Positions 637 through 21,066 of a stretch of DNA of 64,000 nucleotides are shown here, piece after piece; the stretch's first letter is position 1; each line of letters starts with the position of its first letter. Below the pieces are notes generated by a model. That model worked only from the letters and a program-made list of their open reading frames with translations. It was not told where the DNA came from and did not search any database. The DNA comes from an uncultured Bacteroidales bacterium. GTDB taxonomy: Bacteria > Bacteroidota > Bacteroidia > Bacteroidales > WCHB1-69. The translations under genes and the position numbers were made by a program. The stretch covers positions 1,807-65,806 of the forward strand of contig ONQE01000009.1 in NCBI GenBank assembly GCA_900319925.1, written 5' to 3'.

Positions 637-692
637 CAAAAAGAAAAGGGACGTTCTTGTTTGAGACGCTCTGATTTGTAATTATGTGTAAA

Positions 693-727
693 GGGAAGGC
701 TGATGCATTTGCATCGGCCTTTCTTCG
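693..727 (+). terminator. Hairpin followed by a T-rich tract downstream of the capD-like gene
   Basis: Arms aaggctgatgca / tgcatcggcctt (one G-U position) are followed by tcttcgtattt. Confidence 0.5.
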
Positions 728-769
728 TATTTCCTATCGCACTGAAGGCGGGGAATCCGTAACTTTTAC

Positions 770-777
770 TATCTTTG
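770..777 (+). promoter_or_regulatory. Bacteroidetes-type -7 promoter box TAtcTTTG
   Basis: Matches the TAnnTTTG consensus and lies 21 nt upstream of the ATG at 798. Confidence 0.6.
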
Positions 778-797
778 CACACCATTTTCCGTAAGCG

Positions 798-6301: not shown

Positions 6302-6325
6302 TCCTGGACAACCGCAGCACCCCCA

Positions 6326-6346
6326 TTAACTCTTAACTCTTAACTC
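6326..6346. repeat. Heptamer tandem array TTAACTC x3
   Basis: Three exact copies lie between convergent genes. The TAA stop of the S41 peptidase (6340-6342, minus strand) lies inside the array. Confidence 0.85.
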
Positions 6347-7932
6347 TTCCCCAGCACCTCTTTCGCCTTCAAAATCACCTTATCCGTCTTGTTGATGACC
6401 GGATAGAAGGCCTCGTCGTCGTAAAGGTTGCGGCCGATGAGCGCCTTGAGCCAGACCTTCAGCTCCTTGGAGGAATTGGCGGTCATTTTCGAGACTTTCT
6501 TGTTGTTTTTCTCATAATATCGGACGAGTTGCTGCAGCATCTCGTCGGTGATCGTCATGCCTGCAACGTAAGATTTGGCGTCCGGGAACTGTTTTTTCAG
6601 GGCGGATTTGTGGTCGTTGGCGTAGTGGAAGGCGAACTGGATGAGCGCGGAGGAGTTGGCGATGTCATAGTAGGCATCCATATCCTCGCCGCGGTCGATG
6701 GGTACGAAATAGTCGGGCATGATGCCGCCGCCGCCATAGACGGGGCGTCCCTTCAGCGTGTGATAGACCTTTGAGGAGTCGAGGTGGATGCTGTCGGCGC
6801 TCTCCATCTCGCCGTTGAGCAGCCGGTTGTAGAGGTCTTCGTAGTAGGCGTCGGTGCCGTGGGCGTATTCGCGCTGGATGCAGCGGCCGCTGGGCGTGTG
6901 GTAGCGCGAGGTTGTCAGCCGGATGGACGACTGGTCGGAGAGGTCGAACTGCCGTTGTACCAGTCCTTTGCCGAACGAGCGGCGTCCCACGATGATGCCG
7001 CGGTCGTTGTCCTGCACAGCGCCCGCGACAATCTCGCTGGCCGAGGCGCTGAAGTCGTCGATCAGGATGACCACCTTGCCCTCCTCGAAGTCGCCGCGGC
7101 GAGAGGCGTAGATCACCTCCGGGCGCACTTTGGAACCCTCGATGGAGACGATTTCGCGGTTCTTGGGCAGGAACTCGTCGCACACGCTGACGGCCGCGTC
7201 GAGGAAACCGCCGGTGTTGGAGCGCAGATCGACGATCAGGGAGGTCATGCCCTGCTGCTTGAGCTTCAGGATGGCGTCGTTGAACTCCTTGGCCGTGGTG
7301 CTGCCGAACTCGTTGAGCTTGATGTAGCCGGTGTTGGCGTCCATCATATAGGCCACATCCACGGTGTAGGTCGGAATCACGCCGCGCGTGATCTCGTAGG
7401 TGTACTTGTCCTTGAACCCCGGACGCAGGATGCCGACCTTCACCTTTGTGCCCTTGTTGCCGCGCAACAGCTTGAAGGCCTGCTCGTTCTTAATGCCGAT
7501 GATGGACTTCCCATCCACCTCGATCATACGGTCGCCGGCCATCAGCCCGGCTTTCTCGGAGGGGCCTCCGGAGATGACCGACACCACCATCAGCGTGTCG
7601 TTCATAATGTTGAACTGGATGCCGATGCCCTCGAACGAGCCCTCCAAAGCCTCCATCGCCGCCTTGTTGTCCTCGGCGGTGGAGTAGGTGGAGTGCGGAT
7701 CCAATCCCTGCAGCATCGCGTTGATAGCCAACCCGTAAATCGAGTCCACATTGACGGAATCCACGTAGTACTTGTCGATGTATCCCATCACCTCGCTCAT
7801 CTTCTTGAGCTGGTCGTTGCCGCGCTTGCTCAACCGGTTCGGGTTGATGCGCAAGGCGAGGGAGAATCCGGCCAGGAAGGCGACCAGAATCCATAAAAAC
7901 ACGAGGCATCCGTTACGTCTGTTTTCGTTCAT
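6340..7932 (-). CDS. S41 family C-terminal processing (tail-specific) peptidase with PDZ domain
   Basis: Contains SASASEIVAGAVQDNDRGIIVGRRSFGKGLVQ (S41 catalytic Ser/Lys region), a PDZ-like segment GGPSEKAGLMAGDRMIEVDG and an N-terminal membrane anchor. Confidence 0.9.
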   Translation of the reverse strand: MNENRRNGCLVFLWILVAFLAGFSLALRINPNRLSKRGNDQLKKMSEVMGYIDKYYVDSVNVDSIYGLAINAMLQGLDPHSTYSTAEDNKAAMEALEGSFEGIGIQFNIMNDTLMVVSVISGGPSEKAGLMAGDRMIEVDGKSIIGIKNEQAFKLLRGNKGTKVKVGILRPGFKDKYTYEITRGVIPTYTVDVAYMMDANTGYIKLNEFGSTTAKEFNDAILKLKQQGMTSLIVDLRSNTGGFLDAAVSVCDEFLPKNREIVSIEGSKVRPEVIYASRRGDFEEGKVVILIDDFSASASEIVAGAVQDNDRGIIVGRRSFGKGLVQRQFDLSDQSSIRLTTSRYHTPSGRCIQREYAHGTDAYYEDLYNRLLNGEMESADSIHLDSSKVYHTLKGRPVYGGGGIMPDYFVPIDRGEDMDAYYDIANSSALIQFAFHYANDHKSALKKQFPDAKSYVAGMTITDEMLQQLVRYYEKNNKKVSKMTANSSKELKVWLKALIGRNLYDDEAFYPVINKTDKVILKAKEVLGKS

Positions 7933-7992
7933 CTTGACTTTGACTGTTGACTTAGAGGGTTGGTGACTGCAGGGGGCAGGGTGGGGGAGAGG

Positions 7993-10137
7993 CTATTCCA
8001 CGATGGTGAGCTCCTGCATCAGGTTCTGGGCGTTGGCCATCTTGTCGATGATGAAGAGCAGGTAGCGCATATCCATGCAGATGGTACGCTGCACCTGGTT
8101 CTCGAAGGAGATGTCGCCGCTCATGGCTTCCCAGTTGCCGTCGAAGGCCAGACCGATGAGGTTGCCGTTGGCATCGATGACCGGGCTGCCGGAGTTGCCG
8201 CCCGTGATGTCGTTGGTGGTGATGAAGTTCACGATCAGGTCGCCGTTCTTGTCGGCGTAGCGGCCGTAGTCGTGGTTCTCCCACAGCTTGATGAGCTCTT
8301 TCGGCACGTCGAACTCCCAGTCGCCGGGTTTGTACTTGGCCATCACACCGTCGAGGGTGGTGACGTAGCTGTAGGTCACGGCGTCGCGCGGCTCGCAGTC
8401 CTGCACGCTGCCGTAGGTGAGGCGCATCGTGAAGTTGGCGTCGGGATAGAAGTTGCGGTCTTGCTGCATCTCCATCAGCCCCTGCATATAGAGGCGTTCG
8501 GCGCGCTTGTCGTTCACGGTCTCGGCCTGCTCACTCAAATCCCAGTAGGTTTCCAAGATGTTGTACATCAGCGCGAAGATAGGATCTTTGGCTAAGGATT
8601 TGGGGTTGTCCAACCAGGCGTTCACCTTGTTCTCGTCCACGAAGATGGACTTGGCGAAGGCGTTATCGACAAAGGCGGTGAAGTCGCCGTTCGTCTTGTC
8701 GCCCACTTTCTTGAGGATGGACGGCAGTTGGGCGGGGTTCACATCCTTGTAGTAGAGGTTCAGCAGCGCGATGGTGACGTCGCGGTCGAGGGCTTTGTTG
8801 TAGTCTTTGAAGAAATCCTTCACGGAAGCCTTCATATTCTGGGCCATCTTCTTGATCTGCTCCGGGGTGGCGGCCTTCCGCTCGATGGCGGCGTTCAGCT
8901 GTCTGAACCGCAGGGCGAAGGTGACGGCCTCGCCGCCGCGCCAGCCGGCTTCGCGGTTGTAGATCAAGGCTTTGGTGTAGAGGTTCTGGTGGTTCCAGTA
9001 TTTGTCATACTCTTCGAAGATGCCGTCGTATTTGGCTTTGCGGCTCTTGTCGGCGTTCATCCATTTCCGGAAATCCTGTTCTTGGGCCAGCCGCTTCTCA
9101 TAGACCTTGTTCTGCTGCAGCTGCTTCACCTGGCCGATGTAGTATTTCCAGTAGTTGCTGACGCTGGCTTGTTTGGAGGCGTATTGGATGAAGACGGCGG
9201 GGTCGGCGTCCATGTGCTTGCGGTACTGCTCCAGCTTGGTGGTGCGGCAGGCGACGATGGCGGGGCCTTCCAGATCGATGACGTTCTTCACGGAACCGGA
9301 GGAGGAGTAGCGGTCGGTACTGCCGGGATAGCCGAGAATCATCGTGTAGTCGCCGGGTTGCACGCCTTTCAGGGAGACCGGCAGGTAGTGTTTCGACTTC
9401 ATCGGGACGTTGTCTTTGCTATAGGGGGCGGGGGAGCCGTCGGGGGCGGTATAGACGCGGAAGATGCAGAAGTCGCCCTTGTGGCGCGGCCAGGTCCAGT
9501 TGTCGGTGTCGGCGCCGTATTTGCCGATGCCCCACGGCGGGCAGGCCACGAGGCGCACGTCCTTGTACTCGTCATAGACGAACAGGATGTACTGGTTGCC
9601 GTGGTAGAAGGGCACAATCTCGACGCGCACGTCGCGTTTCCCCTTCTTCTCGATGCTCAGCTTCTTGCCGTTCTCCGCGATTTTCGCTTCACGGTCTTTC
9701 TCCGACATGTTGTCGGTCACGCCTTCCAGCACGGCTTTCGTCACATCCTCGATATAGGTGAGGAAGAGGACGGAGAGACCCTCGTTGGGGAGCTCCTGGT
9801 CTTTGCTGTAAGCCCAGAAGCCGTCCTGCAGGTAGTCGTGCTCCACGGAGGCGTGGGCCTGCACGTAGGAGAGGCCGCAGTGGTGGTTGGTGAGCAGCAG
9901 GCCTTCCGGGGAGATGAGCTCGCCGGTGCAGCCGCCACCGAACTGCACGATGGCGTCCTTGAGGCTGGGCTGGTTGAAACTGAAGATCTGCTCAGCCGTC
10001 AGTTTGCAGCCAAGTCGCTGCATATCAGCCAGATTCTGACCGTTGATGGAATAGGGCAGCCACATGCCCTCGTCGGCGCGGGCGCACAGGAAAAGCATCA
10101 TCAGCGCGATGCACAAGAGGTTGGTTTTCTTTGTCAT
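7993..10137 (-). CDS. S46 family dipeptidyl-peptidase (DPP7/DPP11 family), paralog 1
   Basis: Signal peptide followed by DEGMWLP, an His region TNHHCG, and catalytic GGNSGSPV near the C-terminus. Confidence 0.9.
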   Translation of the reverse strand: MTKKTNLLCIALMMLFLCARADEGMWLPYSINGQNLADMQRLGCKLTAEQIFSFNQPSLKDAIVQFGGGCTGELISPEGLLLTNHHCGLSYVQAHASVEHDYLQDGFWAYSKDQELPNEGLSVLFLTYIEDVTKAVLEGVTDNMSEKDREAKIAENGKKLSIEKKGKRDVRVEIVPFYHGNQYILFVYDEYKDVRLVACPPWGIGKYGADTDNWTWPRHKGDFCIFRVYTAPDGSPAPYSKDNVPMKSKHYLPVSLKGVQPGDYTMILGYPGSTDRYSSSGSVKNVIDLEGPAIVACRTTKLEQYRKHMDADPAVFIQYASKQASVSNYWKYYIGQVKQLQQNKVYEKRLAQEQDFRKWMNADKSRKAKYDGIFEEYDKYWNHQNLYTKALIYNREAGWRGGEAVTFALRFRQLNAAIERKAATPEQIKKMAQNMKASVKDFFKDYNKALDRDVTIALLNLYYKDVNPAQLPSILKKVGDKTNGDFTAFVDNAFAKSIFVDENKVNAWLDNPKSLAKDPIFALMYNILETYWDLSEQAETVNDKRAERLYMQGLMEMQQDRNFYPDANFTMRLTYGSVQDCEPRDAVTYSYVTTLDGVMAKYKPGDWEFDVPKELIKLWENHDYGRYADKNGDLIVNFITTNDITGGNSGSPVIDANGNLIGLAFDGNWEAMSGDISFENQVQRTICMDMRYLLFIIDKMANAQNLMQELTIVE

Positions 10138-10159: not shown

Positions 10160-10167
10160 CAAAGGTA
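10160..10167 (-). promoter_or_regulatory. -7 box TAccTTTG for S46 paralog 1
   Basis: The plus strand reads caaaggta, 23 nt upstream of the ATG at 10137. Confidence 0.55.
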
Positions 10168-10179
10168 GTAAAAATTCGT

Positions 10180-11424
10180 TTACTTTCCTCCGAAATCATC
10201 ATAATGGATCATCTCTTTCGTGACGCCCAAGCTGTCGAGCATTTTCAGCACGGCCTGCAGCATCATGGGCGGACCGCAGATGTAGTATTCGATGTCCTCG
10301 GGGGCGGGGTGATTTTTCAGATACTGCTCGAAAATCACGTCGTGGATGAAGCCCGTCGGACCGGTCCAGTGGTCCTCGGGTAGTGCGTCGGAGAGGGCGA
10401 CGTGGAACTCGAAGTTGTCGTGCTCCGCCGCGAGACGCTCGAACTCGTCCATGTAGAAGAGCTCCTTGCGCGAACGGCCGCCGTACCAGAAGGTGGTCTT
10501 CCGGCTGGTATGCTTCACCTTGAACTGGTCGAAGATGTGCGAGCGCATGGGAGCCATGCCCGCACCGCCGCCGATGAACATCATCTCGCGGTCGGTCTCC
10601 TCCACGAAGAAGTCGCCGTAAGGTCCCGACACAAAGACTTTTTCACCCGGCTTCAGATGGTAGATGTAGGATGACGCCACGCCCGGGTTGACCTTCTCCA
10701 TCCGTCCCTTCATGCGGTTGAAGGGCGGCGTGGCGATGCGCACGTTGAGCATCACGATGCCGTTTTCCGCTGGGTAGTTGGCCATCGAATAAGCGCGCAC
10801 CGTCGGGGTTCCGTTCTTCATCCGCAGGTCGAAGAGCCCCATCTTCTGCCAGTCGGCGCGGTAGGGCTCCTCCACCTCCATGTCGGCGAAGTTGACGGTG
10901 CCGGCGGGGATGTCGATCTGGATGTAGCCGCCGGAGCGGAAGTCCATGACCTCGCCCTCGGGCAGCCGCAGCACCAGCTCCTTGATGAAGGTGGCCACGT
11001 TGTGGTTGGAGACGACCGTACACTCCCACTTCTTGATGCCGAAGAAGCTCTCGGGGATCTCGATTTCCATCTCCTCGCGCACCTTCACCTGGCAGAAGAG
11101 GCGGTAGTGGTCGGCGGCCTCCTTGCGGGAGATGTGCGCCAGCTCGGTGGGCAGAATTTCGCCGCCGCCGCTGAGCACCTTGCCCCGGCAGGTGCCGCAG
11201 GAGCCACCCCCGCCGCACGCCGACGGCACGAAGACCTGGGCGTCGGCCAGCGCCTGCAACAACGTGCACCCGCGCTCATGCTCGATCTCCTTCTTCCCGT
11301 TGATCTTGATCTTCACCGATCCCTCGGGAATCATCTTCTTCCGCGCAAACAACAAGATCCCGACCAGCAACCAGATGATTACCAGGAAGATTACGATTGC
11401 TGCTATGATTGTCAATATGTTCAT
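10180..11424 (-). CDS. nqrF: Na+-translocating NADH:quinone oxidoreductase subunit F
   Basis: N-terminal TM helix, 2Fe-2S ferredoxin motif [10 protein letters not shown], and FAD/NAD-binding motifs RAYSMANYP and [12 protein letters not shown] chose the start at [11 protein letters not shown]; the ORF-track start at 11478 adds 18 residues that are probably untranslated. Confidence 0.93.
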
Positions 11425-11496
11425 AATCGTCACATTTTCTACCGAGCTCTTACCCCTCCGGGGCTGTTTATAAAACAAGCTATCATCTTCTCATCG

Positions 11497-11531
11497 CAAC
11501 TACTAACTGCTAACTGCTAACTGCTAACTAA
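11497..11531. repeat. Heptamer tandem array TAACTGC x5 (minus strand reads GCAGTTA)
   Basis: Sequence is caactac taactgc taactgc taactgc taactaa. It begins 5 nt downstream of the nqrE stop, in the nqrE-nqrF junction. Confidence 0.9.
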
Positions 11532-11535
11532 CGAA

Positions 11536-12138
11536 TCACATCCCGAGGAACGCCATAAACCCCATGCCCAGCAGTCCGGTGATGATGTAGGCGATGCCGT
11601 TGCCCTGCAGTTTGGGCGGGATTTTCGCGTATTTGAGGCGTTCGCGGATGGCGGCGAAGGCGGTGATGGCCAACAGCCAGCCGATGCCGGAGCCGAGCGC
11701 GTAGGCCAGACTGTGCGCCACGGTGGGGAAGTGGCGCTCCTGCATGAAGAGTGAGCCGCCGAGGATGGCGCAGTTCACGGCAATCAACGGCAGGAAGATG
11801 CCCAACGTCATATACAGCGCGGGCAGATACCGCTCGAAGACCATCTCCAGCAGCTGCACGATGCCCGCAATCACCGCGATGAAGATGATCAGCGACAGAA
11901 ACGAGAGGTCCGTGCCGGCAAAGCTTGCGTTCAGCCACGTCAACGCCCCTTCGCGGAGCAGGTATTTGTCGATCAAGTAGTTGACGGGCACGGTGACCGT
12001 CAGCACGAAGCAGACGGCCAGTCCCAACCCGAAGGCGGTCTTCACGTTCTTGGAGACGGCCAGATAGGAGCACATGCCCAAGAAGTAGGCGAAGACCATG
12101 TTGTCGATGAAGATGGAGCGGATGAAGATGTCGAACAT
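11536..12138 (-). CDS. nqrE: Na+-translocating NADH:quinone oxidoreductase subunit E
   Basis: 200-aa polytopic membrane protein with conserved NqrE/RnfA-like segments (FLGMCSYLAVS, LPLIAVNCAILGG). Confidence 0.9.
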   Translation of the reverse strand: MFDIFIRSIFIDNMVFAYFLGMCSYLAVSKNVKTAFGLGLAVCFVLTVTVPVNYLIDKYLLREGALTWLNASFAGTDLSFLSLIIFIAVIAGIVQLLEMVFERYLPALYMTLGIFLPLIAVNCAILGGSLFMQERHFPTVAHSLAYALGSGIGWLLAITAFAAIRERLKYAKIPPKLQGNGIAYIITGLLGMGFMAFLGM

Positions 12139-12141
12139 TAA

Positions 12142-12270
12142 GGTTTAAGGTTTAAGGTTTAAGGTTTAAGGTTTAAGGGTTAAGGTTTATGGTTTATGGT
12201 TTATGGTTTATGGTTTATGGTTTAGGGTTTAAGGGTTAAGGTTGGGGGGTACTAACTGCTAACTGCTAAC
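12142..12270. repeat. Composite heptamer arrays: GGTTTAA/GGGTTAA/GGTTTAT/GGTTTAG x15 (12142-12246), G-rich spacer, TAACTGC x2.6 (12253-12270)
   Basis: Units counted directly. The array starts 3 nt upstream of the nqrE ATG. The methyltransferase stop (TAG, 12259-12261) lies inside the TAACTGC part. Confidence 0.95.
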
Positions 12271-13071
12271 CGAATTCCGTTCCCAGAAGACCCCGTCGGC
12301 GTATCCCTGGATGGTGGAGTGGGTGGCGGCGAGGAGGAGGCGTTTGGCGGTCCAGAGGCAGTATTCGCGGTTGACTTCGACGCAGCAGAAGCGGCGGTCG
12401 AGTTTCTTGGCGACGACGGCGGCGGTGCCGCTGCCGGAGAAGGGGTCGAGGATGCGGTCGCCGGGGTTGGAGGAGGCGAGGATGAGCTTGGCGTAGAGTT
12501 TCTCGGGCTTCTGCGTGGGGTGGTCGGTGTTCTCGGGCATCGACCAGAAGGGCACGCTGATGTCGTCCCAGAAGTTGGAGGGGTGGGTGAGCCGGAACTT
12601 GCCGTCGGCGGTGTCGTCCCAGTCTTTGGGCTGACCGTCCACGCGATACGGGGCCAGCACCTTGCGTTTCATCTTGACGGCTTCCAGGTTGAAGGTGTAG
12701 TGTTTCGGGTCTTTCACGGCGAACCAGATGTCCTCCATGCTGTTCTTCCAGTTGAACTTCGCCCCGCGGCCCTTCTCGCGCTGCCAGGTGATGCGGTTGA
12801 GGATGGTAAGCCGCTCTTCGATAACCCGTTGCATAGAGGAGGAGCATTTCCAGTCGCCGCACATATAGAGCGAGCCCGTCGGCTTCAGCTTGTCGCACAC
12901 CTTTCCGAACCAGCTGCGCAGGAATTCCTCGTAATCGTCGGATTGCATGGAAGAGAATTTCCGTCCGTGGAAGTCTTTGTCGAGGTTGTAGGGCGGGTCG
13001 AGGAGGATGAGGTCGAAGAATCCGTCTGGGATGAGGTCGAGGCATTCGAGCAGGTCGCCGTTGACGAGCAT
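12259..13071 (-). CDS. Beta-class DNA methyltransferase (DPPY motif, probably N6-adenine), orphan
   Basis: Motif IV LLDPPYN precedes motif I DPFSGSGTAAV (beta permutation), and a DHPTQKPEKL motif is present. I chose the start at MLVNGDLLECL. The ORF stays open up to 13452, but the extra residues translate the 32-bp repeats and the promoter region; ATG 13365 is an alternative start. Confidence 0.85.
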   Translation of the reverse strand: MLVNGDLLECLDLIPDGFFDLILLDPPYNLDKDFHGRKFSSMQSDDYEEFLRSWFGKVCDKLKPTGSLYMCGDWKCSSSMQRVIEERLTILNRITWQREKGRGAKFNWKNSMEDIWFAVKDPKHYTFNLEAVKMKRKVLAPYRVDGQPKDWDDTADGKFRLTHPSNFWDDISVPFWSMPENTDHPTQKPEKLYAKLILASSNPGDRILDPFSGSGTAAVVAKKLDRRFCCVEVNREYCLWTAKRLLLAATHSTIQGYADGVFWERNSVSS

Positions 13072-13180
13072 ATCGTCGCGGAGGCCGGAGCGCAGGTCGT
13101 CCGGCGTGCTGACGAGCGGTTCCAGCGCGGGGACTTCCCCGGCGGTGACCGTCAGCGTGCGGTTGCGCGGGGCCCGTCCT

Positions 13181-13304
13181 CCACACTGCGGCTCCGCCTT
13201 GTCCGTTTCGCCCCACACTGCGGCTTCGCTTTGTCCGTTTGGCCCCACACTGCGGCTTCGCCTTGTCCGTTTGGCCCCACACTGCGGCTTCGCCTTGTGT
13301 GGGG
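13181..13304. repeat. 32-bp tandem repeat x3.9 (ccacactgcggcttcgccttgtccgtttggcc)
   Basis: Copies lie at 13181, 13213, 13245 and 13277 (truncated) with no spacers. The last copy closes into CCCCACAC-N14-GTGTGGGG. Confidence 0.9.
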
Positions 13305-13399
13305 TTATTAGCGCTTCGCGCGTCTTGCCCCTCCGGGGCTGCTCAAGGAATGTATTCGTTGTCATTCGCTGCCTCTTTCTCTCATTCTTTTTGGAATTG

Positions 13400-13407
13400 C
13401 AAAGGTA
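13400..13407 (-). promoter_or_regulatory. -7 box TAccTTTG upstream of the methyltransferase
   Basis: The plus strand reads caaaggta. It is the only TAnnTTTG match between the repeat field and the methyltransferase gene. Confidence 0.5.
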
Positions 13408-13756
13408 CATTTTTTTTAGACGTTCGCGCATAATCTGAAATAACAATCGCACCTCCCTGAGACGCTCACCCCGCCAGCACGGGCTGCCCCGTCCCTACTC
13501 GCCTCGGAGAGGCGACACGCACGCAGTGCAGGTAACACCACACAAGCGCAGCGCAGTGTGGTGCTGGTAGCGCAGTGTGGTGTCGCAGCGTAGTGTGGTG
13601 TCGTGCCGCAGCGCAGTATGGTGCTGGTGGTATGCAGTGTGGCGTCGTAGCCCTGTGCTGGGGGAGTGACTCTGTGATGATCGGTGAGCGTGTATCTCAT
13701 CTCAGTGTCTCGTCATGCGTACCAGCACCACGCTGCACACGAGACAGCACACCACG

Positions 13757-13924
13757 GGCAGCACACGGCGCACCCTCACCGGCAGCACACTGCGCGGCTC
13801 TGCCGGCATCGCACTGTGTGGCTCTGTCGGCATCGCACTGTGTGGCTCCGTCGGCATCACCCGGCGCATCTCCACCGGCATCGCACTACGTACCACCACC
13901 AGCACCACACTGCGCGGCTACGCC
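13757..13924. repeat. 24-bp tandem array x7 (consensus near GGCATCACACGGCGCNNCNCCACC)
   Basis: Units are in register at 13757, 13781, 13805, 13829, 13853, 13877 and 13901. Confidence 0.85.
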
Positions 13925-14074
13925 GCTAGTATGGTGTTACCTGCGCCTGACGGCGCGTCGCATCTCTCCGAGATGCTCACCCCGCCAGCACGGGCTGCCC
14001 CGTCCCAACTCGCCTCGGAGAGGCGACACGCACGCAGTGCAGGTAGCACCATACCAGCGCAGCGCAGTGTGGTG
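13903..14074. repeat. Long imperfect palindrome at the unit A/B junction (unoccupied version of the RAYT-flanking arms)
   Basis: Paired segments are caccacactgcgc/gcgcagtgtggtg, ggtgYtacctgc/gcaggtaRcacc, gtcgc/gcgac and ctctccgag/ctcggagag, around a 41-nt centre. Confidence 0.8.
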
Positions 14075-14226
14075 ACGTAGCGCGCAGTGTGGTGCTGGTA
14101 GCGCGCAGTGGTGCGTCGTAGCCCTGTGCCGGGGAGTGACTCTGTGATGATCGGTGAGCGTGTATCTCACCTCAGTGTCTCGTCATGCGTACCAGCACCA
14201 CGCTGCACACGAGACAGCACACCACG

Positions 14227-14466
14227 GGCAGCACACGGTGTACCACCGCCGGCATCACACGGCGCGGCTCTGTCGGCGCCACACGGCGTGCCACCACCGG
14301 CGCCACACGGCGTGCCACCTTCAGCGCCACACGGCGTGCCACCGTCAGCATCACACGGCGCATCTCCTCCGGCATCACACGGCGCACCACCATCGGCATC
14401 ACACGGCGTGCCACCACCGGCATCACACGGCGCATCTCCACCAGCACCACACTGCGCGGCTACGCC
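14227..14466. repeat. 24-bp tandem array x10 (same family as 13757-13924)
   Basis: Units are in register every 24 nt from 14227. Copy number differs from unit A (10 versus 7). Confidence 0.85.
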
Positions 14467-15164
14467 GCTGGTATGGTGTTACCTGCGCCTGACGGCGCGT
14501 CGCATCTCTCCGAGATGTTCCGCTCAGTCCGTGAGGAAGTACTCCTCTTTGATTTTGACTCCGTTCTCCGTGAGGAACTTTCGATATTCCTCCTCAAACG
14601 TCACACTATGATGATGCTCCTTCTGTCTGGCGATATACCGCACCACCGTGGCTTTGTCGCGCAAGCTTTTCGAAAACCCAGCATATTCTTTGGTCCAGCC
14701 ACTAAAAAGCGGGAAATGGGGGTTCGCCTTGAGCCACTTGCTTGTGGAGACCTTGAGTTCCTGAACGAATTTGGACATGGCCAAGGTTGCCGGCAGGGAC
14801 ACGAAAAGGTGCACATGATCGGGCATGCCGCCAATGCGGTAAAGATGCCCTCCCTTGTTCTTAGTAAAACCAAGTATGTAGGAGTAGAGCTCTCGTTCGT
14901 GTTCCTCCACGATGGCGGGGACGCTGCGGTGCGTGCGAAGGACAATGTGGTAATAAGTCTGTGTGTAACTCATGATTTTGTTTACAGTTTTGTATAATTT
15001 TGTTTTAACATGCTAATAACGGTAAAATGCTCGGATTATTGTGTTTGTCACATTTCTCTGAGACGCTCACCCTGCCAGCACGGGCTGCCCCGTCCCTACT
15101 CGCCTCGGAGAGGCGATACGCACGCAGTGCAGGTAACACCATACCAGCGCAGCGCAGTGTGGTG
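14445..15164 (-). mobile_element. RAYT/IS200-like Y1 transposase cassette flanked by inverted REP-like arms
   Basis: The left arm (14445-14517) and right arm (15051-15164) are the two halves of the palindrome seen intact at 13903-14074. A 15-nt junction segment is present on both sides (catctctccgagatg at 14503-14517; catttctctgagacg at 15051-15065). The interior (14518-15050) has visibly lower GC than the flanks. Confidence 0.7.
14524..14973 (-). CDS. IS200/IS605-family Y1 (HUH) transposase-like protein, REP-associated tyrosine transposase (RAYT) type
   Basis: 149 aa with HUH motif PDHVHLF and a Tyr motif in VVRYIARQKEHH. The overall pattern (YHIVLRT...GGMPDHVHLFVS...STSKWL) is that of the single-domain Y1 transposase family. 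No tnpB partner is present. Confidence 0.8.
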   Translation of the reverse strand: MSYTQTYYHIVLRTHRSVPAIVEEHERELYSYILGFTKNKGGHLYRIGGMPDHVHLFVSLPATLAMSKFVQELKVSTSKWLKANPHFPLFSGWTKEYAGFSKSLRDKATVVRYIARQKEHHHSVTFEEEYRKFLTENGVKIKEEYFLTD

Positions 15165-15420
15165 CCGCAGTGTGGTGCCGCAGTGTGGTGCCGTAGCGCA
15201 GTATGGTGCTGGTGGTATGCAGTGTGGCGTCATAGCCCTGTGCTGGAGGAGACGATGAGGAGCTACTCGCCTCGGAGAGGCGACACGCACGCAGTGCAGG
15301 TAGCACCATACAAGCGAAGCGCAGTGTGGTGACGTAGTGCGCAGTGTGGTGACGAAGCGCAGTGTGGTGACGAAGCGCAGTGTGGTGACGAAGCGCAGTG
15401 TGGTGACGTGGTGTCGCAGC
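15058..15420. repeat. Two further partial composite units (head modules plus GCGCAGTGTGGTG repeats), ending in an 18-bp tandem gcgcagtgtggtgacgaa x5
   Basis: The head module is repeated at 15058-15140 and, truncated, at 15263-15310. The 18-mer array at 15319-15410 ends 15 nt from the nqrD stop codon. Confidence 0.85.
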
Positions 15421-15424
15421 GCAG

Positions 15425-16000
15425 TTATTTCGCCCAAATAATCACCCCAATCAATATCAGCGCCATGGGCGGGAGAATCATCAGCCCGTTGTTGAGGTAG
15501 CCGGCGGCGTACCAGCTGTCGGGGACGACCTGGTGGTTCCACAACGTGCCGGAGCCGAGCAGCTCGCGGAAGAAGGCCACCACGGCGAGCACCAATCCGT
15601 AGCCGAGACCGTTCATCACGCCGTCCATAAACGACGGGAACGGCTTGTGCGACAGCGCGAAGGCCTCCAACCGCCCCATGATGATGCAGTTGGTGATGAT
15701 CAAGCCTACAAACACCGACAGCATCTTGCTCACATCGTAGAGATACGACTGCAGCAGCAGGTCCACGAGGATGACGAAGAAGGAGACCACCAACAGCTGC
15801 ACGATGATGCGGATGCGCGGCGGTATCGTGTTGCGCATCAAGGAGATGATGAAGTTGGAGCAGGCACATACCACCGTCACGGAGAGGGCCATGACCACGG
15901 CGGGCTTGAGCTGCGCGGTCACCGCCAACGCCGAACAAACGCCCAACGTCTGCACCAGTATCGGGTTGTCTTTGCTGAGGGGTCCGAGGTATTTCTTCAT
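15425..16000 (-). CDS. nqrD: Na+-translocating NADH:quinone oxidoreductase subunit D
   Basis: Contains NPILVQTLGVCSALAVT, GLIITNCIIMGR and other NqrD/RnfE-like membrane segments. Confidence 0.9.
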   Translation of the reverse strand: MKKYLGPLSKDNPILVQTLGVCSALAVTAQLKPAVVMALSVTVVCACSNFIISLMRNTIPPRIRIIVQLLVVSFFVILVDLLLQSYLYDVSKMLSVFVGLIITNCIIMGRLEAFALSHKPFPSFMDGVMNGLGYGLVLAVVAFFRELLGSGTLWNHQVVPDSWYAAGYLNNGLMILPPMALILIGVIIWAK

Positions 16001-16009
16001 GGTATTAAT

Positions 16010-16044
16010 GGTGATTAGTGATTGGTGATTGGTGAGGAGTGAAG
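16010..16044. repeat. Heptamer array GGTGATT/AGTGATT/GGTGAGG x5
   Basis: Spans the nqrD start / nqrC stop junction. The nqrC stop (TAA, 16015-16017) and its last codons (SPITNH) are encoded by the array. Confidence 0.8.
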
Positions 16045-16626
16045 GGAGGATTGCATCATCTCATCCACCCCTTTGGAGGTCAGTGTGGCTCCGCTGATGG
16101 CGTCCACGCGGTTCTCCTCGGCGATTTCGCTGGCGGTTCCCGATTTCAACACTCTCACAGATACGAAGTTGCCGTCTTTATCGTAAAGTTTCTTGCCTTC
16201 GAAGGCTTTCAGGAACGCCGCTTCGGTGATCTTCGCGCCCAAGCCGGGGGTCTCCGATTTGTGGTCGAAGCTGACGCCCTTGAGGGTCTGCCCGTCCTCC
16301 GACACCACCGCGTACCCCCAGATCGGTCCCCACAGCCCTTTGCCGTCGAGACGGATTGCCGTGCCCTTCGAGCCGTCGGCGCAGATGACGCGGTACTGTC
16401 TTCCGTCTTCGGTCAGCGGCTCGGCAAGGTTCGAGAACGCTTCCACGGCCTTCGAGCGGTCGATGTCGTGGCCCGCCGCCCGCAGGATCTGCTGGCACTT
16501 TTCGGCCTGCTTGTTCTGGTCGCGCCGCGGCTTCAACCCCGTGGAGACCAACGTGAGCACCACCGCAATCACCACGACCAACGCCGTGATGTACAGGAAG
16601 ATGTAGGTGTTGCTGAAGTTTTTCAT
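16015..16626 (-). CDS. nqrC: Na+-translocating NADH:quinone oxidoreductase subunit C (FMN-binding)
   Basis: N-terminal TM helix, a GLWGPIWGY segment, and the flavinylation motif AISGATLTS. Confidence 0.87.
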   Translation of the reverse strand: MKNFSNTYIFLYITALVVVIAVVLTLVSTGLKPRRDQNKQAEKCQQILRAAGHDIDRSKAVEAFSNLAEPLTEDGRQYRVICADGSKGTAIRLDGKGLWGPIWGYAVVSEDGQTLKGVSFDHKSETPGLGAKITEAAFLKAFEGKKLYDKDGNFVSVRVLKSGTASEIAEENRVDAISGATLTSKGVDEMMQSSLHSSPITNH

Positions 16627-16628
16627 TT

Positions 16629-16747
16629 AGTGATTTGTGATTTGTGATTTGTGATTTGTGATTAGTGATTTGTGATTAGTGATTAGTGATTAGTGATTAG
16701 TGATTTGTGATTAGTGATTTGTGATTAGTGATTAGTGATTTGTGATC
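16629..16747. repeat. Heptamer tandem array GTGATTT/GTGATTA x17
   Basis: 119 nt is exactly 17 units. It begins 2 nt upstream of the nqrC ATG. Confidence 0.95.
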
Positions 16748-16756
16748 AGAGCCCAA

Positions 16757-16819
16757 AGTCATAAGTCCCACGTCATAAGTCATAAGTCATACGTCATAAG
16801 TCACACGTCCCACGTCTCC
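16757..16819. repeat. Heptamer tandem array AGTCATA/CGTCATA/AGTCCCA-type x9
   Basis: 63 nt is 9 units. The nqrB stop (TGA, 16794-16796) and its last 8 codons lie inside the array. Confidence 0.9.
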
Positions 16820-17870
16820 GTTTGATGTGGTTTTGCACGACGCACCAGTCGATGAGGGGGGCGAAGATGTTCATCAGCAGGATGGCGAGCATCATGCCTT
16901 CGGGGTAGCCTTTGTTGAGGGTGCGGATGAGGATGGCGAGGATGCCGATGAGCAGTCCGTATATGTACTTGCCGTCGCGGGTGTGCGCGGCGGTGACGGG
17001 GTCGGTGGCCATGAAGACCGCACCGAACATAAAGCCGCCCATCAGCAGCTGGTCGTGGGCGGCGACAGGACAAAGACCTGTCAGCTGGCAGACCACCGCT
17101 GTCGCGTAGCCGCCGACGAACACCGAGAACATGATGCGCCAGTCGGCCACTTGGGTGAAGAGGAGAATGGCCGCGCCGATCAGGATGGCAATCTTGCAGG
17201 TCTCCCCGATGCAGCCGGGGATGGTACCGAGGAACAGCTCCCATGTGGAGGGCAGCGCTTCGGGATGGCCGTTCATAACGAGGGCAAGGGGAGTGGCGCC
17301 GGTGACTGCGTCCGCACCGGAAATCCACACTTTGTCGCCGGAAATCACCGACGGGTAAGCGAAGAAGACGAAAGCGCGGGCCAACAACGCAGGGTTCAGG
17401 AAGTTATAGCCGGTGCCGCCGAAGACCTCCTTGCCGAAGATGACGGCGAAAATGGTGGCCACCGCTACGATCCAGAGCGGCACGTCGGGCGGCATGATCA
17501 TCGGGATGAGGAAACCTGTGACGAAGAAACCCTCCGCCACCTCCTCCTTGCGTATCTGCGCGAAGAGGACCTCCACGCCAAGTCCGCTCACGTAGGTCAC
17601 GATGACCAACGGCAGCCATTTCAGGAATCCGTACCAGAGACAAGACCATAGAGCCGTCTGTCCCCCGACGGAGAGGGAATGCTGATAGCCCACATTCCAC
17701 CAGCCGAATACCAACGCGGGAACCAGCGCAATCATCACCGTGATCATGATGCGCTTCATATCGACCGCGTCGCGCACGTGGCAGCGACCGTCCGTGACTG
17801 TCGCGGGCGTACGCAGGAACGTGTCCATGGCGTCGAGCAGGGCGTTGAATCTATGCGGTTTCTCAGACAT
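16794..17870 (-). CDS. nqrB: Na+-translocating NADH:quinone oxidoreductase subunit B
   Basis: Contains FMATDPVT (the FMN-threonine region), NIFAPLIDW..V....IKRR near the C-terminus, and multiple TM segments. Confidence 0.9.
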   Translation of the reverse strand: MSEKPHRFNALLDAMDTFLRTPATVTDGRCHVRDAVDMKRIMITVMIALVPALVFGWWNVGYQHSLSVGGQTALWSCLWYGFLKWLPLVIVTYVSGLGVEVLFAQIRKEEVAEGFFVTGFLIPMIMPPDVPLWIVAVATIFAVIFGKEVFGGTGYNFLNPALLARAFVFFAYPSVISGDKVWISGADAVTGATPLALVMNGHPEALPSTWELFLGTIPGCIGETCKIAILIGAAILLFTQVADWRIMFSVFVGGYATAVVCQLTGLCPVAAHDQLLMGGFMFGAVFMATDPVTAAHTRDGKYIYGLLIGILAILIRTLNKGYPEGMMLAILLMNIFAPLIDWCVVQNHIKRRRGTCDL

Positions 17871-17886
17871 CTCTTCAAAAAGTTGG

Positions 17887-17894
17887 CAAAAGTA
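17887..17894 (-). promoter_or_regulatory. -7 box TActTTTG in the 29-nt gap between the fucosidase stop and the nqrB start
   Basis: The plus strand reads caaaagta, 17 nt upstream of the nqrB ATG. Confidence 0.5.
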
Positions 17895-17899
17895 ACAAA

Positions 17900-19714
17900 T
17901 TATCGCTTATCTGGCTCAAAAGAAGTGATCCGAATCACCCACGCATTCTCCAGCTCGTTAAGTTTTTTCGTGTCGATGTCGGAAAAGTCGATAGTAAGGG
18001 TTCCTCTCTTGTCCTGCTTCCATTTCAGCATGGTGTAGGCTTTCCCTTTTTCGCCGTGGTAGCTCATCTCATAATCCGTGCCTAACAGGATCATCCCATC
18101 TTTCGGGTTTAGCTTTGGCATATTCTTGATGACTAGCGGCTTGCGCGGATCAGGACGCTCGAACTCGATAATGTAGAGGTTGTTGTAGAGGTTCTCGCTC
18201 TTGGTGGTGAAGCAGCGTGTGGTGGTTTGCCATGTGATTTCGCTAATCCAGTTTGAGGATACGGGCTCGAAATCCCCTCCGTCAACACTCACGAGGAGCG
18301 AGGCCGTGGCCTCGAGGTCTTTCTCATGATACCAGACATCTAATTGATAATTCTCCCCTTTGGCGAGGTGCACCTCATACCAAGGCGTGTTCTCCGCCCA
18401 GTTACTGTTGTAATAGAGAATAGTGTCCCCATTGCCTGCAACGGTCATCTCGTCGTTGGCAACAGCCTTGAAACGGTATGTACCATCCTTCGGCGCCTTG
18501 AAAGATCCTTTCCAATGAATGTCGAAGTTGTCCACTGGCATTTCTCTGAGTGGGGCATTGCGCACCCAGTCGAAATGTAGAGGGCCTGAATATCCAGGTA
18601 AAGCGAAGGTCGTTGTACGTTGGCACGGAATCTCATACGGCCTTGTCCCATATATCGCCTCGCCGTTGATTTTCAGCCATTTGCCGAGTGCTCTCAGCCG
18701 TTCCTGCTGGATGAGCGGGATGGTGCCGTCGGCGTAGGGACCCACGTTGAGGGTCATGCCGCCGCCGTGCGCCACCAACTCCACAAAGTGCTGTATCAAC
18801 TCCTTGTCGGTCATGTAGTTGTCCAAATCCTCGTTGCGGTTCAACCCGAAGCTGCGTCCGAAGCCGCGGCACTCTGCCCACGGCACCTCGGTGTTGGCGA
18901 TGCCCGCGCTGTACTCGGGCGTCAGGAAGCCGTGCTTCGTGCCGTTGCCCCAACGGTTGTTCACGATGGCGTCCGCGCCCACGGTGTTGTAGTACCAGCT
19001 GATCAGTTCCTGCGAACGAAGCTGCTCCGCCGTGTTGTTCCAGTCGCCGTCGGAGAAGAGAAGGTCGGGCTTGTAACGGCCCACCAACTCCTTGAACTGC
19101 GGCACCATATAGTTATCAACATAGTCGCCGATCTCGTTGTCGGGATCCTGCATCCAGATGTGGCGCGGGTTGGTCCATTCTGGCAGCGAGTAGTAGAAGC
19201 CCATCCGCAGTCCGTGGTCGCGTACGCTGGTGGTCAACTCCTCCACGATGTTGCGCCTCGGACCGCTCATCACGCTGTTCCATTCAGGCTGGAATGGACT
19301 GTCCCACAGACAGTAGCCGTCATGATGTTTCGTGACCAACACCACGTATTTCGCGCCGGCATCCTTGAACATTTGCGCCCAATCGTCGGGATTCCAAAGC
19401 TCTGCGTGCCAGAATTTGGTGAGCTCCTTGTACTGGTCGAAGACGGGCTTGGTGGTGTCGGCGTAGTAGCTCATGATGCGCGTCCGCTCGGGCACTTTCT
19501 GCATCAGCCCGCGGTAGAACCATTCGCCGTAGCCCTCCTTGGAGGCGTAGGCAGGCACGGAGTAGAGTCCCCAGTGGATGAAGATGCCGAGTTTCGCGTC
19601 TTGGAACCACTGCGGGTAGCCGCGCTGGTTGAGGGATTCCCACGTGGGTTGAACTTGGGCCTGTGTCGTCAATCCGGCCAGTAGGATTATCAATAAGGTC
19701 GCTAATTTCTTCAT
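17900..19714 (-). CDS. GH29 alpha-L-fucosidase with a C-terminal PA14-like/carbohydrate-binding extension, secreted
   Basis: Signal peptide MKKLATLLIILLAGLTTQAQ, then the GH29 core (FGIFIHWGLYSVPAY, YVVLVTKHHDGYCLWDS, YYSLPEW) and a C-terminal PA14-like segment (GTYRFKAVANDEMTVAGNG). I chose the ATG at 19714, which overlaps the nqrA stop as ATGA. Confidence 0.85.
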   Translation of the reverse strand: MKKLATLLIILLAGLTTQAQVQPTWESLNQRGYPQWFQDAKLGIFIHWGLYSVPAYASKEGYGEWFYRGLMQKVPERTRIMSYYADTTKPVFDQYKELTKFWHAELWNPDDWAQMFKDAGAKYVVLVTKHHDGYCLWDSPFQPEWNSVMSGPRRNIVEELTTSVRDHGLRMGFYYSLPEWTNPRHIWMQDPDNEIGDYVDNYMVPQFKELVGRYKPDLLFSDGDWNNTAEQLRSQELISWYYNTVGADAIVNNRWGNGTKHGFLTPEYSAGIANTEVPWAECRGFGRSFGLNRNEDLDNYMTDKELIQHFVELVAHGGGMTLNVGPYADGTIPLIQQERLRALGKWLKINGEAIYGTRPYEIPCQRTTTFALPGYSGPLHFDWVRNAPLREMPVDNFDIHWKGSFKAPKDGTYRFKAVANDEMTVAGNGDTILYYNSNWAENTPWYEVHLAKGENYQLDVWYHEKDLEATASLLVSVDGGDFEPVSSNWISEITWQTTTRCFTTKSENLYNNLYIIEFERPDPRKPLVIKNMPKLNPKDGMILLGTDYEMSYHGEKGKAYTMLKWKQDKRGTLTIDFSDIDTKKLNELENAWVIRITSFEPDKR

Positions 19715-21066
19715 TCTTGATTCTGCATTTTTAATTCCAAGAGGGCGTCCTCGACGATTTGTTGCCACTCCTTTTTCGAGGGGCAGACGAGTTCGCAGAG
19801 GGCGAAGTCCTCGCTATCGACTTCGTAGATGCCGAGGGCTTCCATCTGTTCGATGTCCTTGATCTCGCAGGCCTTGAGCAGCTGCAGAGGCATCAGGTCG
19901 AAGGGGAAGACCTTGTCATAGACGTCGGTCATCATGACGGCGCGGCGGCCGCCGTGGAGCGAGGTGTTGACATCGTAGGTGCGTTTCGGGGTGAGCCACG
20001 ACAGGAATGTGTGCGAGAGGCTCCATTTCTTCAGCCCCGGCAGTAACCATCCGAGGATCTCGCGTTGGCCGCCCTCCGCAATGACCGTGATCTGCCGGTC
20101 GTGGAAAGCGAGGGTGGGGGAGTCCCCCAACTTGCTGCCGCTCAGTATGCTGCCGCTGATGGCGCGGACGTTCTCCTGCGTGAGGCTGTCGGCGAACAGC
20201 GCGGACAGATCCGCACCGTAAATCGTGTCGAAGTAGCCGGTGTTCTTGACGGCGGGCCCCGTCAGCGCAGCGGTTTTCCCGAACTGCAGCATCTGTTCCG
20301 CAAAGAAACGACCGATGCGGGCCACCTCTTGCGGGTCGAGGAACCAGACCGTTTCGCCTTTGTCGATGGGGTCTATTCGGTGGATTTGAGTGCCGACGTT
20401 TCCGGCGGGGTGCGGACCGCTGAAGTAGTGCTTCTGCACATTCTCGACAGCTTCAAAGAGTTGGTTGTCAGCCCTTTCTCGCATACAGATATGTACAGTC
20501 GCGTCACCGGCGGCCAGTTGCAGCATCTTGATTCCCTGCCGGAAATCCTCCTCCTTGCCACGCATCAGCACATTGAAGTCCGGGGCGAGTGGGTTGCTGT
20601 CGAAGCAGGAGACGAATACGGCTTTGGGTTTCGCATCGGGACTGGGGATGGTGGCGTAGGGGCGTTGTCGCAGAGAAGGCCACAGACCATTCTGTAGCAA
20701 CAACTTGCGGACAGCCTCTCCGTCGGTCGGTGGCTCGAAATGGATGGTTCTTTCCGTGGGCGCGTCCACGTCGCGGGCAATCGTGATCTCCTCGATGATC
20801 CGCTTCTCGCCGCGCACAATCTCCCGCACCGTGCCTGCAATGGGAGAGACAATGACGACACGTTCATCCGCTTTGTCGTGGAACAACGGGCTGCCGATTT
20901 CCACGTGGTCGCCAGCCTGCACGAGCAATTTGGGTTTCATCCACCGGAAGTCGGATGGCCGGATGTGGAAGGTTTTGGGCAAAACGAAGTCTAACGGCGT
21001 GTCGGGCGCGGCGCCGTCCAACTTCAGATCCAGTCCTTTGTTGATTTTGTAGGTCATCGTGTTCAT
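19711..21066 (-). CDS. nqrA: Na+-translocating NADH:quinone oxidoreductase subunit A
   Basis: Has the typical N-terminus IKKGLDL-type (YKINKGLDLKLDGAA) and the length and architecture of NqrA. Confidence 0.9.
   Translation of the reverse strand: MNTMTYKINKGLDLKLDGAAPDTPLDFVLPKTFHIRPSDFRWMKPKLLVQAGDHVEIGSPLFHDKADERVVIVSPIAGTVREIVRGEKRIIEEITIARDVDAPTERTIHFEPPTDGEAVRKLLLQNGLWPSLRQRPYATIPSPDAKPKAVFVSCFDSNPLAPDFNVLMRGKEEDFRQGIKMLQLAAGDATVHICMRERADNQLFEAVENVQKHYFSGPHPAGNVGTQIHRIDPIDKGETVWFLDPQEVARIGRFFAEQMLQFGKTAALTGPAVKNTGYFDTIYGADLSALFADSLTQENVRAISGSILSGSKLGDSPTLAFHDRQITVIAEGGQREILGWLLPGLKKWSLSHTFLSWLTPKRTYDVNTSLHGGRRAVMMTDVYDKVFPFDLMPLQLLKACEIKDIEQMEALGIYEVDSEDFALCELVCPSKKEWQQIVEDALLELKMQNQE

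Follow-up and report, generated by a model that had tools for sequence, protein, structure and literature searches.

A probable two-layer insertion between nqrD and nqrE of a rumen Bacteroidales: a fixed methyltransferase gene with its promoter-like block and a strain-variable transposase and repeat array

The six genes for the Na+-translocating NADH:quinone oxidoreductase (Na+-NQR), nqrA-F, are interrupted at two junctions in DNA from an uncultured Bacteroidales bacterium of the rumen (WCHB1-69; GCA_900319925.1, contig ONQE01000009.1, positions 1,807-65,806 of the forward strand; the whole stretch of 64,000 nt is called the window below). An earlier note on this DNA had described the interval between the nqrD stop at 15425 and the nqrE start at 12138 as a single 3.3-kb insert of heptamer arrays, repeats, a Y1 transposase gene and an orphan DNA methyltransferase (MT) gene, none of them related to Na+-NQR. 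These limits, and the inventory and coordinates of genes and repeats, all proved correct (Table 1), and the gene content is indeed foreign to Na+-NQR. Instead of a single insert, however, we find at least two layers of different age. We read the interval as probably a genuine insertion, built of layers, into an nqrABCDEF operon that was formerly compact; the MT gene and its promoter are fixed, and a block of repetitive extragenic palindromic (REP)-like arrays around the Y1 gene is variable.

The distinction between the layers comes from conspecific contigs, which were retrieved by exact-protein look-ups from many independent assemblies and show 95-97% nucleotide identity. Wherever a conspecific contig bears nqrE (L171-L175 and L177-L186), MT and promoter block precede it, as they also do in the sister species L001, while the DNA between them and nqrD takes several forms. 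The nqrD-nqrE (D-E) spacer is window-like, with Y1 gene and REP units, in L171, L172, L174, L175, L178 and L180 (2.6-3.2 kb), and contains additional repeat units in L177 (4.5 kb). That of L173 (1.3 kb) has one REP array, one GC-rich unit and no Y1 gene, and equals the window minus 13575-15389, a segment with REP arrays at both its ends. In L179 and L182 (2.0 kb) we found full-length nqrD followed by another Y1 gene on the opposite strand, encoding a protein of 153 amino acids (32% identical) and accompanied by a hairpin repeat of its own in four copies (GGAACCCCTAACGGGGTT...). Finally, a D-E spacer does not apply to L001 and L186, where unrelated DNA precedes promoter, MT and nqrEF, or to L176, where unrelated genes come after nqrD. 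In every variant the homology is lost within some 40 nt on the upstream side of the promoter block. The earlier note had named an arrangement shared by close relatives as evidence against its proposal; such sharing holds for the MT layer and fails for the repeat and transposase layer.

In the upstream DNA of L001 a low-GC block (644-8221) stands in place of nqrD and encodes a BspA-type leucine-rich repeat protein, a KAP NTPase and a RloB/AAA_21 pair, giving it a defence-island-like character. A comparison of L001 with L002 for a decayed divergent gene upstream of the promoter revealed no similarity.

For the ancestral state we turned to 80 Bacteroidales species genomes from which NqrE relatives were taken. 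About 60 of these have a D-E gap of 35-100 bp, and most of the 80 also have similarly short gaps at the other junctions, in agreement with the compact ancestral operon that the earlier note had assumed. In the rumen clade nearest the window the gap is made up of tandem heptamers of varying sequence. Since related genomes have a D-E spacer of heptamers only, those at 12139-12243 are spacer of the ancestral type and not, as first thought, part of the insert, which spans about 12252-15424. In the window, 15 copies of AACCTTA/AACCATA (12138-12243) reach the nqrE ATG, 2.7 copies of CAGTTAG overlap the MT stop, and TTAGCAG heptamers precede nqrF at 11500-11530. The mRNA strand of the heptamers is G-poor and unstructured (fold z +0.35 and +1.1).

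Such arrays are not peculiar to this junction. They fill further spacers of the window (11500-11530, 16627-16816, 33681-33746, 44990-45040 and 52584-52633) and the D-E spacers of L004-L006, L010 and L015, and they frequently terminate exactly at a start codon (nqrE, nqrC). Orthologous spacers of related species carry different heptamers.

The MT of the fixed layer shows the beta-class order of motifs, DPPYNL (motif IV) preceding FSGSGT (the S-adenosylmethionine motif I), and is of the N6-adenine/N4-cytosine type. The solved proteins nearest to it are 8urk (E 9e-37), M.MboIIA (E 1e-26), CcrM and M.RsrI, and its homologues at 60-74% identity, mostly solitary, occur in gut and rumen members of Bacteroidales, Treponema and Firmicutes. 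At 11 of 80 loci a co-oriented type II restriction endonuclease of 387 amino acids follows the MT homologue. No restriction enzyme gene lies near MT in the window, where it is surrounded by nothing but nqr genes and the Y1 gene, so the label 'orphan' stands. Between the window and L001 (93% amino acid identity) MT has a ratio of non-synonymous to synonymous divergence (dN/dS) of 0.14, and its dS of 0.26 matches those of nqrE (0.23) and nqrF (0.33), which indicates that MT has been inherited together with nqrEF and under purifying selection.

The promoter-like block contains a -7 box, TACCTTTG, that conforms to the Bacteroidetes sigma-ABfr element TAnnTTTG. It is the sole minus-strand box of this kind within 10167-17887, in line with the earlier note, in which nqrEF have no box of their own and the nearest one precedes MT. 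The block is kept in four species: the window and 11 conspecific contigs have it (all 12 conspecific contigs examined), as do L001, L002 and L003. L002 and L003 are sister species without MT; in these it lies 60-110 nt before nqrE and is followed by a hairpin and heptamers. Between MT and nqrE there is neither a terminator-like hairpin nor another TAnnTTTG box, and the RNA of this 120-nt spacer is unstructured (-4.8 kcal/mol, z +1.1). Because the block is conserved before nqrE even where MT is absent, because the spacer is unstructured and free of terminators, and because promoter, MT and nqrEF occur as a detached unit in some contigs, the promoter at 13400 probably drives an MT-nqrE-nqrF unit. 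The earlier note had proposed this unit, which now has strong comparative support while remaining a prediction. MT words were present in about 14 rumen metatranscriptome runs, with shares similar to those of nqrE. A sigma-70 promoter scan gave nothing relevant, as expected for Bacteroidetes.

Two alleles of the MT 5' region were found. Members of the MT family begin M..K.RA.RNRTLTV, and allele A (L001, L179 and L186) has a start of this native type 17 nt after the box. In allele B (the window and most strains) the native start has been replaced by a MITE-like element (MITE, miniature inverted-repeat transposable element) of three hairpins (GCCCCggaGGGGC; GCGCgaaGCGC; CCCCACAC..GTGTGGGG) and by 32-nt tandem copies of its last hairpin, of which the window has 3.7 (13181-13298) within the 5' part of the MT open reading frame (ORF). 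The first 90 or so codons of the maximal ORF are repeat-derived. The distance from the box to the MT core is 186, 201, 234 or 252 nt according to strain. All differences are multiples of 3 despite the 32-nt unit, and the ORF is open in each (a chance of about 1/27 if the indels were independent). Since every leader length stays in frame with an open ORF, this suggests that the repeat-encoded N-terminal extension is translated. We also considered phase variation of MT through 32-nt copy number; it is disfavoured, as all 4 of the 4 length variants are in frame, which argues for a constitutive extension.

The three-hairpin element, about 80 nt long (..GAGCAGCCCCGGAGGGGCAAGACGCGCGAAGCGC..CCCCACACAAGCGAAGCGCAGTGTGGGG), is found in sense orientation in 5' leaders at several other sites. 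Besides 13300-13345, these are a short copy in the nqrF leader (11440-11470), L001 9877, L002 4932 and 15501, L003 1647, the D-E spacer of L007 and the nqrA-fucosidase junction of L172, L173 and L176. It is polymorphic within the species, occurring at the nqrA/fucosidase junction in L171-L176 and not in the window. Its stems show compensatory changes (GCCCC/GGGGC to GCCTC/GAGGC and GTCCC/GGGAC; GCGC/GCGC to GCAC/GTGC), it has no Rfam match, and its last hairpin has the REP core of the arrays flanking the Y1 gene. In rumen DNA and RNA libraries its words reach a depth of 900-2000, compared with about 10-20 for the flanking genes.

The variable layer is built of short hairpin repeats, including four copies of a 124-nt GC-rich unit (Table 1). 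The REP core GCGCAGTGTGGTG has 18 matches with at most one mismatch in the 64 kb (0.17 expected), all within 13551-15405, and GCAGTGTGGKG has 17 (0.11 expected), all within 13211-15405. One arm and its inverse at 13918-14066 can fold into a long hairpin (-51.8 kcal/mol, z -6.4) resembling the REP doublets known as REPINs. The copy number of the 18-nt array differs between metagenomes, and a contig joint from an RNA library skips 76 nt. Elsewhere the repeats are scarce. When 185,000 species genomes were scanned for an exact 21-mer, two loci only were returned, and a count of the motif over 90 loci placed it only beside Y1 genes, in L081 and in L003. L003 is the one locus of the 80 centred on nqr to possess the motif, with one arm of the family in its own D-E spacer, and L081, from another metagenome-assembled genome (MAG), holds a REPIN (fold z -10.9); these are the only gene-less copies found. 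Two plus-strand ORFs of 166-167 amino acids (13575-14075 and 14108-14611) were rejected as a conserved gene, being artefacts of an octapeptide repeat, and a 164-amino-acid gene called beside Y1 homologues is a real protein unrelated to them. Rfam gave no match at gathering score in the whole window, and at E<=1 across 11300-16900 only a chance mascRNA match.

The Y1 protein, of 149 amino acids, has the HUH motif DHVH and the tyrosine motif YIARQKEHH. It belongs to the IS200/IS605 Y1 (HUH) superfamily: Pfam Y1_Tnp recognises it, DHVH and Y113 align to solved TnpA, and its nearest solved structures are those of IS200/IS605 TnpA. The NCBIfam IS200 model scores 55.1 bits (cutoff 55). The model NF047646 for REP-associated tyrosine transposases (RAYTs) scores 22.7 (cutoff 80), which leaves the protein outside class 2 TnpAREP. 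More than 500 homologues at 63-98% identity, nearly all of 149-150 amino acids, show a dN/dS of about 0.04 between species, and other MAGs hold the gene at unrelated loci. There too hairpin arrays flank it without exception, those of close homologues belonging to the same GCGCAGTGTGGTG family and those of a 64% homologue to a different palindrome, ACGTGCTGAAAGCACGT. Across the window gene, arms of 21 nt with 100% complementarity lie inverted, as cognate REPs do around RAYT genes, and the gene is bracketed likewise in L086-L090, L188 and L190. A genome-dispersed REP population of tens to hundreds was not found in the 64 kb and the 80 nqr loci. To judge from these features, the gene behaves like that of a REP-associated transposase, yet it departs from RAYTs in the dispersal of its repeats and in sequence class. 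Its length and the signature Y---Q--HH correspond to subclass 1.2 of Y1 proteins, an assignment made from the signature. No TAnnTTTG box is present on the gene strand of its leader (14974-15046). In L190, a 293-nt direct duplication (2430-2722 and 3327-3619, 94% identical) repeats the 3' end of the Y1 homologue and the downstream hairpin upstream of the gene.

Might the Y1 gene and its flanks simply be an active insertion sequence (IS) of the IS200/IS605 type, recently arrived and not domesticated? The two model scores, the closest solved structures, the presence or absence of the gene among strains and its differing loci across species would fit this idea. Such an IS would be expected as near-identical multiple copies, often with tnpB, but the window has a single copy and no tnpB, and homologues are only 65-85% identical across MAGs, a divergence of 15-35% between species that, with the low dN/dS, is unlike a near-identical multicopy element. 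Moreover, the family has been described as low-copy and without IS200 ends (PMC6006769), and long multi-unit flank arrays exist without the gene in L081 and L003. We therefore regard an active IS as doubtful.

Transcription offers a second alternative, namely a single nqrB-to-nqrF transcript in which Y1 and MT would be read-through passengers, the 13400 box at most a minor promoter for MT, and the REP hairpins a means of tuning mRNA stability. REP arrays 3' of genes are known to stabilise the upstream mRNA and not to terminate it. Consistent with this alternative, every gene is co-oriented, terminator-like sites are not above background (13 found vs 9.9 expected), and the nqr genes, MT, the Y1 gene and the nqrD/REP junction are found at comparable depth in contigs from RNA libraries. 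What a single transcript explains poorly is a promoter block conserved in four species and placed directly before nqrE in the two without MT, nqrEF without upstream nqrD in L001 and L186, and the opposite-strand Y1 gene in the L179/L182 spacer. In addition, four runs gave no RNA contig over 13572-14439, a weak argument since repeats also break contigs. On balance a single transcript seems to us improbable.

Several points nevertheless weigh against a layered insertion with its own promoter for nqrEF. The canonical -33 element of sigma-ABfr promoters is a TTTG about 19-21 nt upstream; none lies at this distance from the 13400 box, and only an A-tract and a TTTC about 31 nt upstream are found. 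The genes from nqrB to nqrF, including Y1 and MT, are co-oriented without a canonical terminator, and read-through from nqrBCD may occur. The RNA libraries consist of unstranded contigs that break at heptamers and REPs and possibly contain DNA, and so speak for presence and not for the ends or the continuity of transcripts. Unlike classical REP populations, the REP core shows no dispersal, since the 17-18 copies found in the 64 kb all sit at one locus. L001, L186 and L176 are metagenome assemblies and may have been mis-joined at repeats. Lastly, the order of events is ambiguous: the hairpin element is upstream of MT in the window and downstream in L001, and L002 and L003 may have lost MT instead of its having been gained later.

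The earlier note had raised the possibility that the assembly is chimeric at the repeats, and short-read unitigs do end within the arrays while L001, L176 and L186 attach nqr genes to unrelated DNA, but a chimera is hardly credible given that at least eight independent assemblies from different studies reproduce the order nqrD-REP-Y1-REP-promoter-MT-nqrE, that the window is matched colinearly by L180 (10.9 kb, 94.7% identity, over the entire interval) and by L177 (9.6 kb, 97.5% identity, between a point upstream of nqrA and the promoter), and that unitigs of four bovine metagenomes from different studies cover the nqrD/REP, REP/promoter, MT/heptamer and heptamer/nqrE junctions. Equally remote is the idea that Na+-NQR is being lost following disruption of its operon, for although two junctions are interrupted and nqrD stops after codon 191, directly abutting the REP array and without its last 6 or so codons, the six-subunit set is complete and intact with each member above its NCBIfam equivalog cutoff, nqrE and nqrF have dN/dS of 0.02 and 0.12 (window vs L001), nqr genes are found in metatranscriptomes, and the tail of nqrD in relatives, at least 6 further codons, is not conserved (KNRVTER* in L003, GQRAPQ* in L179).

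The D-E junction is not the only one to have been invaded. The operon of the window is not contiguous with short spacers, the D-E and A-B spacers being 3.3 and 1.9 kb, and the fucosidase gene that the earlier note had placed between nqrA and nqrB is indeed there, its ORF overlapping the nqrA stop. In the region 17871-17899 a TACTTTTG box precedes the nqrB ATG by 17 nt. Among L004, L005, L007, L010 and L015, any relative with an A-B insertion likewise shows a TAnnTTTG box, about 21 nt before nqrB, which is missing from compact relatives. It is therefore plausible, as the earlier note had suggested, that the operon is split into three transcription units. The A-B junction of L004 and L010 holds other genes, and in the more distant L012 and L013 the D-E junction holds unrelated, independent cargo of 5.1 and 3.6 kb. 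The nqr operon of this clade has been invaded repeatedly, at differing junctions. We also observed a full-length gene for elongation factor G (EF-G; TIGR00484, 979 bits), co-oriented between nqrC and nqrD, in three sister species. The cargo of L012 and L013 includes an ORF6N-domain protein, a nucleotidyltransferase/HEPN-like pair and a Fib_succ_major/type IX secretion system (T9SS) protein.

Table 1. Positions of features in the window, where the minus strand carries every gene of the locus, and of genes inserted in related loci (given by L number)
Feature	Position	Strand	Remarks
nqrA	19711-21066	-	NCBIfam equivalog above cutoff
GH29 (glycoside hydrolase family 29) fucosidase	17900-19768	-	Between nqrA and nqrB
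nqrB	16794-17870	-	NCBIfam equivalog above cutoff
nqrC	16015-16626	-	NCBIfam equivalog above cutoff
nqrD	15425-16000	-	NCBIfam nqrD 278-285 bits, above cutoff
18-nt REP array	15315-15424		Repeat match 15315-15408; gene strand CACCACACTGCGCTTCGT, 5 copies; begins right after nqrD stop
Two 124-nt GC-rich units	15214-15337, 15047-15170		Each with hairpin CGCCTCtccGAGGCG
13-nt REP array	about 15151-15208		Repeat match 15153-15193; between the two upstream 124-nt units
AT-rich leader of Y1 gene	14974-15046	-	
Y1_Tnp ORF, 149 amino acids	14524-14973	-	Pfam PF01797, E 1e-20
Inverted copy of Y1-upstream arm	14466-14520		14466-14486 (21 nt) 100% complementary to 15129-15149
Two composite repeat units of ~470 nt	13446-14458		Each: 24-nt array, shared central piece, REP array, 124-nt unit
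24-nt arrays	14220-14458 and 13779-13919		
124-nt GC-rich units of composites	13957-14080 and 13446-13569		
Promoter-like block GTCTAAAAAAAATGTACCTTTGC	13383-13430	-	-7 box at 13400-13407
MT leader region	13178-13385	-	Upstream ORF (uORF), three-hairpin element, 32-nt copies; in-frame fusion to MT
7-codon uORF	13362-13385	-	Stop overlaps MT ATG 13363-13365, at its A
N6_N4_Mtase ORF (MT), maximal	12259-13452	-	PF01555, 4e-41, 141.7 bits
Orphan beta-class DNA methyltransferase (MT)	12259-13365	-	368 amino acids from ATG 13365; DPPY motif; conserved core from ~13176
Heptamer arrays	12139-12270	-	Between MT and nqrE
nqrE	11536-12138	-	TIGR01940 289 bits
nqrF	10180-11478	-	NCBIfam equivalog above cutoff; probable start ATG at 11424
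EF-G gene	L002 6845-8920; L005 3663-5729; L007 6264-8336	Co-oriented with operon	TIGR00484
D-E cargo	L012 4856-10000; L013 6430-10000		5.1 kb; 3.6 kb

The results suggest a model in which an orphan MT derived from a type II system, behind a Bacteroidetes-type promoter and co-oriented with nqrE, would form the old and fixed layer. The MT promoter would now transcribe nqrE and nqrF and make this downstream half independent of read-through from nqrBCD. In the allele of the window, a MITE-like hairpin element and amplification of the 32-nt unit have replaced the native MT start, and the new ATG at 13365 would give a translated in-frame extension. The young and strain-variable layer would be the subclass 1.2 Y1 gene nested in cognate REP-like arrays and REPIN-like palindromes between the nqrD stop and the promoter. 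Its protein might nick and join single-stranded DNA at the hairpins, as IS200/IS605 TnpA and RAYTs do; together with recombination between the direct repeats, this could produce gain and loss of units, loss of the gene, exchange of one Y1/REP pair for another and rearrangements just upstream of the promoter. Transcripts of nqrBCD would enter the repeat block and probably be attenuated there.

A bolder extension, which we offer tentatively and think rather unlikely, is that in Bacteroidales the subclass 1.2 Y1 proteins evolved independently into a second kind of REP-associated transposase, one that seeds and reshapes 5' leaders. The cognate core CGAAGCGCAGTGTGG(T/G)G would, on the same and similarly conjectural reading, be the last hairpin of the abundant, transcribed three-hairpin leader element, inserted in sense orientation upstream of starts and with compensated stems. 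If so, MT would have gained a new translated N-terminus and nqrEF a promoter-leader module of their own, and the D-E site would be a recurrent landing pad for two different Y1/REP pairs. More speculatively still, heptamers and hairpin elements could serve internal cistrons as unstructured initiation pads independent of a Shine-Dalgarno sequence.

Taken as a whole, the locus gives a worked example, at the level of a population, of how an essential and normally compact respiratory operon tolerates invasion. The processes are ordinary ones: mobile repeats, an orphan MT, and internal promoters after operon invasion. Downstream genes would acquire or share an internal promoter, and MT would become entrenched and hard to lose because its promoter serves nqrEF, while the repeat and transposase block stays fluid. 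The association of the little-studied subclass 1.2 Y1 proteins with REPs, two systems of this sort taking turns at a single site, is modestly new; the general understanding of Na+-NQR, REPs and orphan methyltransferases is unchanged. In practical terms, the nqr spacers of rumen Bacteroidales are a hot spot that breaks short-read assemblies and confuses operon-based annotation.

These features can be set against known systems. The REP/REPIN-RAYT systems of Proteobacteria, reportedly described by Nunvar in 2010 and by Bertels and Rainey in 2011, resemble the locus in having a single-copy Y1 gene between inverted palindromic repeats, gene-less doublets that form REPIN-like long hairpins, and purifying selection. 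In contrast to those systems, the window protein falls in the IS200 branch and not in class 2 TnpAREP, the repeats are clustered at the gene and not dispersed in hundreds, and the location of the gene is not conserved between species and is polymorphic within one. The MT is like other orphan beta-class enzymes of type II origin (YhdJ, CcrM and M.MboIIA-like) in its N6_N4_Mtase domain, its DPPY motif and the absence of an adjacent nuclease. It differs from them in lying inside a respiratory operon, where it is predicted to share a promoter with nqrEF, and in having its N-terminus replaced by a repeat element.

The heptamers recall the TAACTGA direct repeats that in Beggiatoaceae, Cyanobacteria and a few Bacteroidetes lie shortly upstream of start codons (MacGregor 2015, PMC4679880). 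They too are tandem, in forward orientation and end 0-40 nt before starts, and a related unit, TAACTGC, occurs on the plus strand of the window. Unlike the TAACTGA repeats, the heptamers here are of many different sequences, even at orthologous spacers, and fill spacers between cistrons of an operon across a rumen Bacteroidales clade. Finally, the subclass 1.2 Y1/HuH proteins (Quentin et al. 2018, PMC6006769) have about 148 amino acids, the motifs DH[IV]H and Y---Q--HH and a conserved C-terminal domain, and were described as low-copy proteins of Bacteroidetes and Cyanobacteria, with no REP and generally no terminal IS200-like hairpins. The window protein agrees with them in size, in DHVH and YIARQKEHH, in low copy number and in its distribution in Bacteroidetes, and the second Y1 gene, in L179, is similarly subclass 1.2-like (DHIH and YIENQTQHH). 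In contrast to that REP-less description, hairpin arrays in many copies, inverted with respect to each other, bracket the window gene as well as its homologues in five other genomic contexts, and these arrays co-vary with the Y1 protein.

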